DNA of 64,000 bases from Escherichia phage vB_EcoM_G2133: sequence record MK327928.1. The stretch is one strand, 5' to 3'. The notes beneath the pieces are model-generated. The model saw only the letters and a list, made by a program, of their open reading frames with translations, searched no databases and was not told the DNA's origin. How positions within the stretch are numbered: the first letter of the stretch is position 1; every line of letters starts with the position of its first letter. Shown piece by piece: positions 6,158 through 7,294 of the stretch. A program made the position numbers and the translations under genes.

Positions 6158-6229
6158 TGGCCCTGGGTGGAATTGAACCACCATCTGGCGATTATGAGTC
6201 GCTTGCTTGAACCTTCCAGCTACAGGGCC
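6158..6229 (-). tRNA. tRNA-Ile (anticodon CAU, lysidine-type; software may call it Met)
   Basis: Minus strand GGCCCTG...AGCGA-CTCATAA-TCGCC...GGTGG-TTCAATT-CCACC-CAGGGCC-A; anticodon CAT, as in the T4 tRNA-Ile. Confidence 0.7.
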
Positions 6230-6235
6230 TTGATA

Positions 6236-6308
6236 TGCTGATTGACGGAATCGAACCGCCGACGTCCTCATTACAAGTGAGGTGCTCTACCTACTGAGCT
6301 AAATCAGC
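6236..6308 (-). tRNA. tRNA-Thr (anticodon UGU)
   Basis: Minus strand GCTGATTTAGCTCAGTAGG...CCTCA-CTTGTAA-TGAGG...GGTTCGATTCC...AATCAGC-A. Confidence 0.8.
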
Positions 6309-6315
6309 GAAATTA

Positions 6316-6402
6316 CGGAGGCGATAGGATTTGAACCTATGAGTCGCCGGAGCGACTGCCGGTTTTCAAGACCGGTGCATTAAACCACTCTGCCACGCCT
6401 CC
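6316..6402 (-). tRNA. tRNA-Ser (anticodon UGA), long variable arm
   Basis: Minus strand GGAGGCGTGGCAGAGTGG...CCGGT-CTTGAAA-ACCGG, long variable arm, AGGTTCAAATCCT, CGCCTCC-G. Confidence 0.8.
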
Positions 6403-6404
6403 AG

Positions 6405-6478
6405 TCTCCATACAAGGATTTGAACCTTGGACCTCCTGATCCCAAATCAGGCGCTCTACCAAACTGAGCTACACGGAG
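6405..6478 (-). tRNA. tRNA-Pro (anticodon UGG)
   Basis: Minus strand CTCCGTGTAGCTCAGTTTGG...CCTGA-TTTGGGA-TCAGG...AGGTTCAAATCCT...TATGGAG-A. Confidence 0.8.
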
Positions 6479-6491
6479 TAAATTAAATTTG

Positions 6492-6562
6492 AGCGGATAA
6501 TGAGAATCGAACTCACATCATCAGATTGGAAGTCTGAGGTAATGCCATTATACGATATCCGC
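6492..6562 (-). tRNA. tRNA-Gly (anticodon UCC)
   Basis: Minus strand GCGGATA...TCAGA-CTTCCAA-TCTGA...GTGAG-TTCGATT-CTCAT-TATCCGC-T. Confidence 0.8.
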
Positions 6563-6568
6563 AAACTT

Positions 6569-6655
6569 TGGTACGAGAAGTGGGACTCGAACCCACAAGG
6601 AAATCATTCCGCAGCATTTTAAGTGCTGTGCCTTTACCAATTTGACTATTCTCGC
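6569..6655 (-). tRNA. tRNA-Leu (anticodon UAA), long variable arm, encoded CCA
   Basis: Minus strand GCGAGAATAGTCAAATTGG...CAGCA-CTTAAAA-TGCTG, long variable arm, GGGTTCGAGTCCC, TTCTCGT-A-CCA. Confidence 0.8.
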
Positions 6656-6661
6656 TCTATA

Positions 6662-7294
6662 TTATTTATTACGTGAAAAAGATTGTTCTATCAATTCTGG
6701 ACACTTTCGTTCTATCCATTTTCTAGCTTTTTGTGGGCTTATACCTATTATTTTAGCAGCTTTACTAACCCATCCAAATTTAGAATAATCGATTTTAACT
6801 AATTCTTCGTAAATTTCATCAGTTAAAATCTTTTCATTAATATTTACCAGTAAATGATATAATTTATTATCATTAGCAATTTTAATGAATCTTTTATAGT
6901 TTCCGCCTTTACTTAAACCTAATGAAGTAATTGCAGATGATATAGTAGCCGAATTTAATAATGCGTTTAAAATTTCTTCATCACTAACATTATAACGCTT
7001 TTTATTATTTTTAATATTTTTACCAGCAAAAGTATCAGTTTGCGAATGGCAATTTGGACATAATAATCTTAAATTTGATTTAAGATGATTTTTATTATTT
7101 CCATCAATATGGTCTAATTGCAGAACAATATGCTTATTTTGCCATTTTGAAATTTTACAAATTGCACACTCATATGGAAAAATATTTTCTTTTATTATTT
7201 TGTCTTTCAGCTTTCCTGTACTAAAATTTGGATGTTTTCCTTCAAAAATTTCAGCTAATTTAGTATCCATAATATAATTCCCAATTATTAACAA
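6662..7294 (-). CDS. HNH homing endonuclease
   Basis: HNH core CAICKISKWQNKHIVLQLDHIDGNNKNHLKSNLRLLCPNCH with zinc-binding Cys pairs; stop codon 6 nt from the 5' end of tRNA-Leu; true start may be the internal Met at 7270. Confidence 0.75.
   Translation of the reverse strand: MLIIGNYIMDTKLAEIFEGKHPNFSTGKLKDKIIKENIFPYECAICKISKWQNKHIVLQLDHIDGNNKNHLKSNLRLLCPNCHSQTDTFAGKNIKNNKKRYNVSDEEILNALLNSATISSAITSLGLSKGGNYKRFIKIANDNKLYHLLVNINEKILTDEIYEELVKIDYSKFGWVSKAAKIIGISPQKARKWIERKCPELIEQSFSRNK

Follow-up and report, generated by a model that had tools for sequence, protein, structure and literature searches.

Homing endonuclease genes usually spare the genome of their host by residing in introns, inteins or intergenic DNA. 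HNH homing endonucleases of the I-HmuI type, which are encoded by group I introns, are modular, with the HNH domain followed by helical or helix-turn-helix (HTH) DNA-binding modules, and they typically nick one strand near the insertion site. We analyzed here a free-standing HNH endonuclease gene that stands in the place of tRNA-Gln at the head of the tRNA array of Escherichia phage vB_EcoM_G2133, in a stretch of 64,000 nucleotides (nt) of sequence record MK327928.1 (the window), that is, 64 kilobases (kb) of a roughly 168-kb genome. The protein shares with the I-HmuI type the modular layout of an HNH domain plus helical/HTH region, but no intron is present and the cassette consists of the open reading frame (ORF) and 7 nt. 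The T-even free-standing HNH genes MobA-E, of which MobE has been characterized, are likewise small AT-rich ORFs without promoters, placed in an existing transcription unit and patchily distributed in close relatives (PMC2988022). In contrast to the Mob genes, the cassette is absent from T4, and whereas they sit between genes or split protein genes that remain functional, it has removed the body of an RNA gene; no T4 Mob gene was present among the phage tblastn matches listed, the Mob proteins not having been compared directly. Another HNH endonuclease whose gene lies among phage tRNA genes is F-TflIV (hegA) of T5, reported to be a site-specific endonuclease encoded in the T5 tRNA gene cluster (Akulenko 2004, as cited in PMC2330249). 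It was the closest named relative among the phage tblastn matches listed, but its identity is low (35% over 84% of the length), it belongs to a Demerecviridae phage and it lies between tRNA genes rather than replacing one. Finally, T4 SegB resembles the present gene in being a free-standing homing endonuclease gene within the tRNA precursor transcript whose ORF abuts the next tRNA, tRNA-Arg in T4; SegB cuts within the tRNA genes of relatives, tRNA-Gln included, and causes the tRNA region to be inherited preferentially (PMC2330249). However, SegB belongs to another nuclease superfamily, lies between Ile and Arg and replaces no tRNA in T4. The labels 'HNH endonuclease', 'putative homing endonuclease' and 'F-TflIV' are already attached to the gene in GenBank; what is new is its site and the removal of a gene body, as the literature searched, which covered few subscription journals, yielded no earlier account of tRNA-Gln being replaced by an HNH gene in T4-like phages.

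The window is a Tequatrovirus (T4-like, Straboviridae) mosaic with ~96-97% identity to many GenBank phages (megablast, 25-kb segments). The features around the HNH gene are the following:

7381..7668, minus strand: trna.2 homologue, 95 amino acids (aa), the final protein gene ahead of the leader of the tRNA operon (ORF list; 96% identical to T4 trna.2).
7353..7380, minus strand: putative T4-type middle (MotA-dependent) promoter, ATATGCTTTA, 12 nt, TATTAT, read by eye from the sequence.
7284..7352, minus strand: native tRNA-operon leader with a hairpin of 11 base pairs at ~7292-7317 (sequence comparison; fold).
7275..7283, minus strand: tRNA-Gln scar, consisting of nt 1-9 of the tRNA, TGGGAATTA, shortly upstream of the HNH start codon (alignments).
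6659..7274, minus strand: cassette of 616 nt, in place of nt 10-71 of tRNA-Gln (alignment).
6662..7270, minus strand: free-standing HNH endonuclease gene, 202 aa plus stop, with a Zn-finger HNH domain at its N terminus and, at the C terminus, a helical/HTH DNA-binding region.
6656..6661, minus strand: spacer TATAGA, 6 nt, from the HNH stop to tRNA-Leu (sequence, alignment).
6569-6655, minus strand: tRNA-Leu(UAA), the first tRNA of the array (ARAGORN; Rfam 58.3 bits).

The window and the carriers T4_ev151 and Pu-Krd-SF5 were first aligned with G2540-3, which is without the HNH gene, and the comparison was then widened to nine carriers and seven non-carriers; the scar alignments took in T4, G2540-3, T2, RB18, Sf22, pSs-1 and ASO78A. 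Relatives without the HNH gene show trna.2, a 97-nt leader, tRNA-Gln (73 nt) and tRNA-Leu, and their sequence reads ...TTGTTAATAAT / TGGGAATTAGCCAAG...(tRNA-Gln, 73 nt)...CCCAG / C / GCGAGAATGG, the last block being tRNA-Leu. Carriers read ...TTGTTAATAAT / TGGGAATTA / TATT-ATG...HNH...TAA-TATAG / C / GCGAGAATGG. The cassette is made up of the ORF with 4 nt upstream and 3 nt downstream, and what remains of tRNA-Gln is 9 nt at its 5' end and 2-3 nt at its 3' end. The 9-nt scar fixes the direction of the change, with tRNA-Gln ancestral and the HNH gene incoming. The distance from the scar to tRNA-Leu is 628 nt in all eight carriers in which it was compared and 74 nt in all seven non-carriers, and the junctions of the eight fetched carriers are identical to the nucleotide. 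The ninth carrier, the BASEL phage KarlGJung (Bas37, MZ501089.1), departs from them only in its spacer and in a 9-nt in-frame duplication within the HNH ORF:

1194-1811 of L020, minus strand: KarlGJung HNH gene, with KNIKNIKNNKK versus KNIKNNKK in the linker after the HNH domain.

The spacer reads TATAGC in T4_ev151, Pu-Krd-SF5 and other aligned carriers and TATAAC in KarlGJung. The endonuclease-associated replacement of a tRNA gene that the original prediction had proposed from the letters of the window is thus borne out by the alignment with the T4 region, in which the cassette lies over the missing part of tRNA-Gln and the scar is kept. Its placing of the HNH stop 6 nt from tRNA-Leu was also correct (the stop codon is at 6664-6662 and tRNA-Leu starts at 6655), whereas its end coordinate of 7294 corresponds to an upstream in-frame TTG and not to the start, since homologues and GenBank annotations use the ATG at 7270. 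An intron-encoded ORF or a split tRNA was considered and rejected: there was no Rfam intron match and no tRNA remainder, and splicing could not restore a tRNA.

In T4 (NC_000866), tRNA-Gln stands directly 5' of tRNA-Leu, after which come Gly, Pro, Ser, Thr, Ile, segB, Arg, rnaD and rnaC. The minus-strand order in the window is Leu, Gly, Pro, Ser, Thr, Ile(CAU), segB and Arg, and the T4 operon architecture, from the middle promoter after trna.2 to rnaC, is complete and in order with the exception of Gln. After tRNA-Leu the window carries:

6491-6562, minus strand: tRNA-Gly(UCC) (ARAGORN, Rfam).
6404-6478, minus strand: tRNA-Pro(UGG) (ARAGORN, Rfam).
6315-6403, minus strand: tRNA-Ser(UGA) (ARAGORN, Rfam).
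6236-6308, minus strand: tRNA-Thr(UGU) (ARAGORN, Rfam).
6158-6229, minus strand: tRNA-Ile/Met(CAU) (ARAGORN, Rfam).
5451..6116, minus strand: segB, GIY-YIG homing endonuclease, 221 aa, the second endonuclease gene of this tRNA operon (Pfam GIY-YIG; T4 annotation).
5372-5447, minus strand: tRNA-Arg(UCU) (ARAGORN, Rfam).
5106..5367, minus strand: stable RNAs rnaD (species 2) and rnaC (species 1), the operon end (blastn to T4: rnaC 97%, rnaD 87%).

ARAGORN detected no tRNA-Gln across the 64-kb window, the Rfam tRNA model gave the same seven tRNAs and no match in 6656-7380, and a blastn-short search with T4 tRNA-Gln found no remnant above chance length anywhere in the window. The original prediction agrees with these results on the seven foldable tRNAs (Leu, Gly, Pro, Ser, Thr, Ile(CAU) and Arg(UCU)), on the apparent absence of tRNA-Gln, on the lack of any tRNA just upstream of the HNH gene (Rfam without a match up to 7380) and on the T4 layout that it had given. 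It had also named a tRNA-Gln elsewhere in the genome as the result that would contradict it. Only 64 kb of the roughly 168-kb genome were inspected, which leaves room for such a gene outside the window, but Tequatrovirus tRNAs all lie in a single cluster, and the complete genomes of two carriers with the same layout are without it: DCP2 has 10 tRNAs and ES26 has 9, all inside the cluster and Gln among none (ARAGORN), and BLAST with tRNA-Gln found no trace in either genome. A tRNA-Gln located elsewhere is therefore extremely improbable, and from these relatives we infer that its absence extends beyond the 64 kb in the genome of vB_EcoM_G2133 itself. In the window, as in the complete genomes of the two carriers, 67-71% of Gln codons are CAA. 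Codon usage is therefore unadjusted, with reliance on the host tRNA-Gln(UUG) for the preferred CAA codon, and the codon-usage check proposed with the original prediction gave no sign of compensation.

The 202-aa protein matched PHROG 14736 'HNH endonuclease' from end to end (E 5e-124). Residues C35, C38, H54, N66, C71, C74 and H75 are invariant in 35 aligned homologues and D53 is nearly so, a pattern that constitutes the zinc-finger HNH motif CxxC...DH...N...CxxCH. The AlphaFold model (predicted local distance difference test, pLDDT, 90.4) places the expected two strands and helix around the motif residues, and its C-terminal half is helical with a final HTH-like segment, GWVSKAAKIIGISPQKARKWIE. 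With this motif and fold the protein belongs to the HNH (His-Me finger) nuclease superfamily. No significant sequence match was found among solved structures. The ORF is intact and of full length in all 16 carriers among the tblastn matches listed.

Sampling of the phage population was based on GenBank records. Among GenBank phages, tblastn found the protein at at least 95% identity in 63 records (58 at at least 99% and 5 at 95-99%), and the matches of carriers to a probe of the Gln allele broke off 9 nt inside tRNA-Gln, at query position 108-110. Scans of IMG/VR with the junction sequence and with the protein found nothing. The cassette is present on at least three downstream array backgrounds:

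Background 1: T4-type array with segB allele A, in the window, T4_ev151 and G10400 (segB 99% identical to that of the window).
Background 2: Tyr plus segB allele B (82% identity), in Pu-Krd-SF5 and BP32.
Background 3: Tyr/Asn(/His) arrays without segB, in DCP2, ES26 and KarlGJung.

The identical junctions on several backgrounds establish that the allele arose once and was then transferred horizontally among Tequatroviruses. Nucleotide identity of the cassette among carriers is 98.7-99.7% versus 92-98% for the neighbouring non-tRNA flanks, and its GC content is 25.5% versus 35.8% for the window. The gene thus displays what is expected of a homing endonuclease gene in two respects, being polymorphic for presence or absence at one fixed site with identical junctions, and being more conserved than its flanks and uncoupled from them. 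We consider it reasonably probable that the gene is a free-standing homing endonuclease gene of the HNH type, that the middle promoter of the tRNA operon drives its expression and that its spread converts Gln-containing alleles into Gln-less ones; the activity, target and expression proposed for it are deduced from sequence.

The comparison shows that, in an ancestor of T4 layout, the 616-nt cassette, almost all of it HNH ORF, replaced nt 10-71 of tRNA-Gln and left intact the promoter and leader of the operon, nt 1-9 of tRNA-Gln and the tRNA-Leu junction. Under the homing explanation, during a mixed infection the enzyme would nick or cut the Gln-bearing allele of a relative without the HNH gene, and recombinational repair off the carrier genome would copy the cassette, so that every homing event would delete the tRNA-Gln of the recipient. 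The putative target would most likely lie within or beside the tRNA-Gln sequence missing from carriers. Most homing endonucleases have their target near the insertion site. When eight carriers were compared with seven non-carriers, no fixed difference was found within +/-700 nt that could represent a carrier-specific flank polymorphism; therefore, if the target is near the site, the missing tRNA-Gln body is the only possible basis there for the immunity of carriers. As common hosts allow T4 to do without its tRNAs, the phage would tolerate the loss, the host tRNA-Gln(UUG) then being needed for CAA.

A search of 5.8 billion proteins revealed homologues at 68% and 58% identity on three long metagenomic contigs; homologues in the 58-68% range were restricted to metagenome assemblies, with none in GenBank phages. 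All three are syntenic: they follow gp2, gene 1, 57A, 57B and trna.x ORFs and stand first in the tRNA array, in T4-like phages that are more distant. On contig L014, which carries the 68% homologue, the ATG lies 14 nt downstream of an intact tRNA-Gln(UUG) (ARAGORN; Rfam 65.5 bits), while arrays of 14 and 16 tRNAs follow the gene on the other two contigs, Gln among none and several further tRNA species also missing. The HNH lineage is thus an old associate of the 5' ends of T4-like tRNA arrays, and of tRNA-Gln especially. Several other sequences were observed around these homologues. On L014, GC-rich, structured-looking non-coding stretches at 4604-5010 and 3640-3830 (~400 and ~190 nt), without Rfam match, flank the HNH homologue, and a tRNA-like T-arm/acceptor fragment lies at ~5265-5295. 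The GC-rich stretch after the L014 gene suggested that the divergent homologues could lie within group I introns, which was rejected as Rfam found none. A tRNA 3'-half-like end (GGTTCGATTCCAC...) is located at 3700-3745 of L015 and 9690-9735 of L017, upstream of a gene for a small DUF1328 membrane protein, itself followed by the HNH homologue; this end was called neither by ARAGORN nor by Rfam and may be another tRNA remnant.

The position of these homologues at the head of tRNA arrays in divergent T4-like phages would also suit a gene domesticated for another phage function, such as anti-defence or the exclusion of co-infecting relatives by DNA cutting, or a loss of tRNA-Gln that was itself selected. 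One recent report (PMC13096335) links SegB, encoded in the same operon, to evasion of a tRNA-targeting defence, and at least one immune effector that cleaves tRNAs, Cas13a, counts tRNA-Gln(UUG) among the substrates it prefers (PMC11042736). However, homing in T-even phages produces marker exclusion as a by-product anyway. The patchy ~12% distribution, together with an AT-rich cassette that has no promoter, is what classically marks a selfish homing endonuclease gene (PMC2988022), and we regard domestication or selected loss as improbable.

Several observations nevertheless weigh against homing. The Pfam HNH model scored 17.2 bits against the protein, under its gathering cutoff of 21.4, and Foldseek with the whole model gave no significant match in the PDB. 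The cassette is present in only ~12% of the records of the locus (63 versus 446 records in which a 231-nt leader/Gln/Leu probe was fully covered by megablast), a share that would fit a drive still young, one held back by what the loss of tRNA-Gln costs, or passive spread through the very active recombination of T4. Long co-conversion tracts are a hallmark of recent homing, yet no such tract was visible and the flanks adjoining the cassette are not co-inherited with it. The coexistence of gene and tRNA-Gln on L014 would mean either that the family does not necessarily target tRNA-Gln or that this tRNA allele is resistant. A predicted pairing between the GGG of the scar and a CCC upstream of it would hide the ribosome-binding site, as occurs in other T4 endonuclease genes (PMC2988022); it is not claimed, since the leader fold was not significant against shuffled sequences (z -1.29).

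Some of these points are accommodated by an origin in two steps, in which the HNH gene was inserted between tRNA-Gln and tRNA-Leu, tRNA-Gln was later deleted, and the allele then moved passively by homologous recombination, the endonuclease being now inactive or irrelevant. The deletion could have occurred, for example, between AATTA at nt 5-9 of tRNA-Gln and an AATTA just past the 3' end of the tRNA: L014 shows tRNA-Gln followed by CCAATTAAAGGGGAGTT-ATG-HNH, and AATTA also ends the scar of the window. Low carrier frequency and the very frequent recombination of T4-like phages, with flanks shuffled right up to the cassette, are in keeping with passive spread. However, a microhomology of only 5 nt in AT-rich DNA could be due to chance, no Tequatrovirus with both tRNA-Gln and the HNH gene was present among the fetched loci, and the cassette is more conserved than its surroundings. 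Furthermore, every copy inspected has kept the ORF and all its catalytic residues intact, and a dead gene at 25% GC would not be expected to do so. We consider this two-step origin with passive spread unlikely, although it deserves attention, and retain homing as the preferred explanation.

Concerning expression, the T4 middle promoter located just upstream of the tRNA cluster drives a precursor of ~1.75 kb through the whole cluster (PMC2330249). The HNH gene has no promoter of its own and is placed behind that of the operon, so its transcription would start at the MotA-dependent middle promoter, and it would form the first cistron of the tRNA precursor. The leader is 92-99% identical among carriers and non-carriers. 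A generic scan for sigma-70 promoters and terminators was uninformative (15 sites vs 11 expected). For translation, the tRNA-Gln scar would supply a weak ribosome-binding site: its GGGA, 8-11 nt before the ATG, may act as a weak Shine-Dalgarno sequence. At the other end of the gene, by analogy with T4 segB and tRNA-Arg, the cut of RNase P at the 5' end of tRNA-Leu, 6 nt past the HNH stop, would free the 3' end of the mRNA. A change in the 5' processing of tRNA-Leu had been anticipated by the original prediction, and it stands in part: a Gln-Leu dimeric precursor is impossible in carriers and the leader becomes an HNH mRNA of ~700 nt, but there is no sign that cleavage by RNase P changes. The -3..-1 context of the Gln-Leu junction, AGC, is kept in 6/9 aligned carriers, the window having AGA and KarlGJung AAC, and ES26 and BP32 not being read there; judging from these bases, there would be no reason to expect a failure of RNase P at tRNA-Leu. 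The tRNA-Leu of the window has an A at position 9 (6647) and an A at -1 (6656), whereas G9 and C(-1) are found in the rest of the aligned phages, whether carriers or not; it still scores 58 bits with Rfam despite G9A.

Two further swaps of a single tRNA were seen beside that of HNH for Gln. In RB18 (NC_054906.1), a SegB-like GIY-YIG/NUMOD3 gene at 488-1138 of the fetched segment L024 (minus strand), 4 nt after tRNA-Gly and 6 nt before tRNA-Ser, lies exactly at the position of tRNA-Pro in relatives, and no tRNA-Pro was found in the fetched 2.7-kb cluster segment. In T2 (PV648364.1), a 133-aa ORF without Pfam match, at 1832-2233 of L023 (plus strand), lies between tRNA-Ser and tRNA-Ile(CAU), at the position of tRNA-Thr in T4 and in the window, and no tRNA-Thr was found in the fetched T2 region. 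In-register replacement of single tRNAs by ORF cassettes may thus be a general route of variation in T-even arrays. A broader proposal, which is tentative and which we hold as possible rather than probable, is that the HNH enzyme recognizes the tRNA-Gln gene itself and would constitute a natural gene drive that deletes a tRNA with each homing event, and more generally that T-even arrays evolve by in-register swaps between tRNAs and endonuclease genes or other ORFs, so that selfish nucleases, and not codon usage, would set their tRNA content.

Other variation was observed in these arrays. Two alleles of tRNA-Gln(UUG) are identical outside the whole anticodon arm, which reads TAGCA-CTTTGAC-TGCTA in T4, Sf22 and ASO78A and CTGGA-TTTTGAT-TCCAG in G2540-3, RB18 and pSs-1; the two thus differ by an exchange of the stem, with full compensation of its pairs, and by loop positions 32 and 38. 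In the T2 'escape mutant' record, the anticodon stem of tRNA-Gln contains a mismatch. An extra 171-aa ORF (RB32ORF135c-like, without Pfam match) lies between trna.2 and the operon leader in T2, RB18, Sf22 and ASO78A and is absent from T4, G2540-3, pSs-1, the window and the fetched carriers, being another variable cassette at the array head. The segB gene of the window is 84% identical at the nucleotide level to T4 segB, 82% to the Pu-Krd-SF5 allele and 99% to that of T4_ev151. There are also two alleles of tRNA-Arg(UCU), the one in the window being 100% identical to that of G2540-3 and 75% to that of T4_ev151, without BLAST match to T4. Finally, ARAGORN called a 94-nt 'tRNA-Lys(ttt)' at 5105-5198 (minus strand), which was rejected as a tRNA gene because it is the tRNA-like 3' part of rnaC (97% to T4 rnaC), a region with a tRNA-like acceptor stem and T-arm (GGGTTCGAATCCCGG) and no Rfam tRNA score. 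The call is confined to the window because a 1-nt deletion (TTTTAAAAT vs TTTTAAAAAT) gives a 7-nt loop.

An HNH cassette that spread among T-even phages while removing a phage gene would be a small natural example of a 'deleting' gene drive, and the system is directly testable with existing phages, as the carrier Bas37 (KarlGJung) belongs to the BASEL collection. The cassette accounts for part of the variation in tRNA content among Tequatroviruses that are otherwise ~96% identical. Phage tRNAs are now thought to counter host defences that cleave tRNAs. If this is true, gain and loss of tRNAs driven by nucleases could affect host range.

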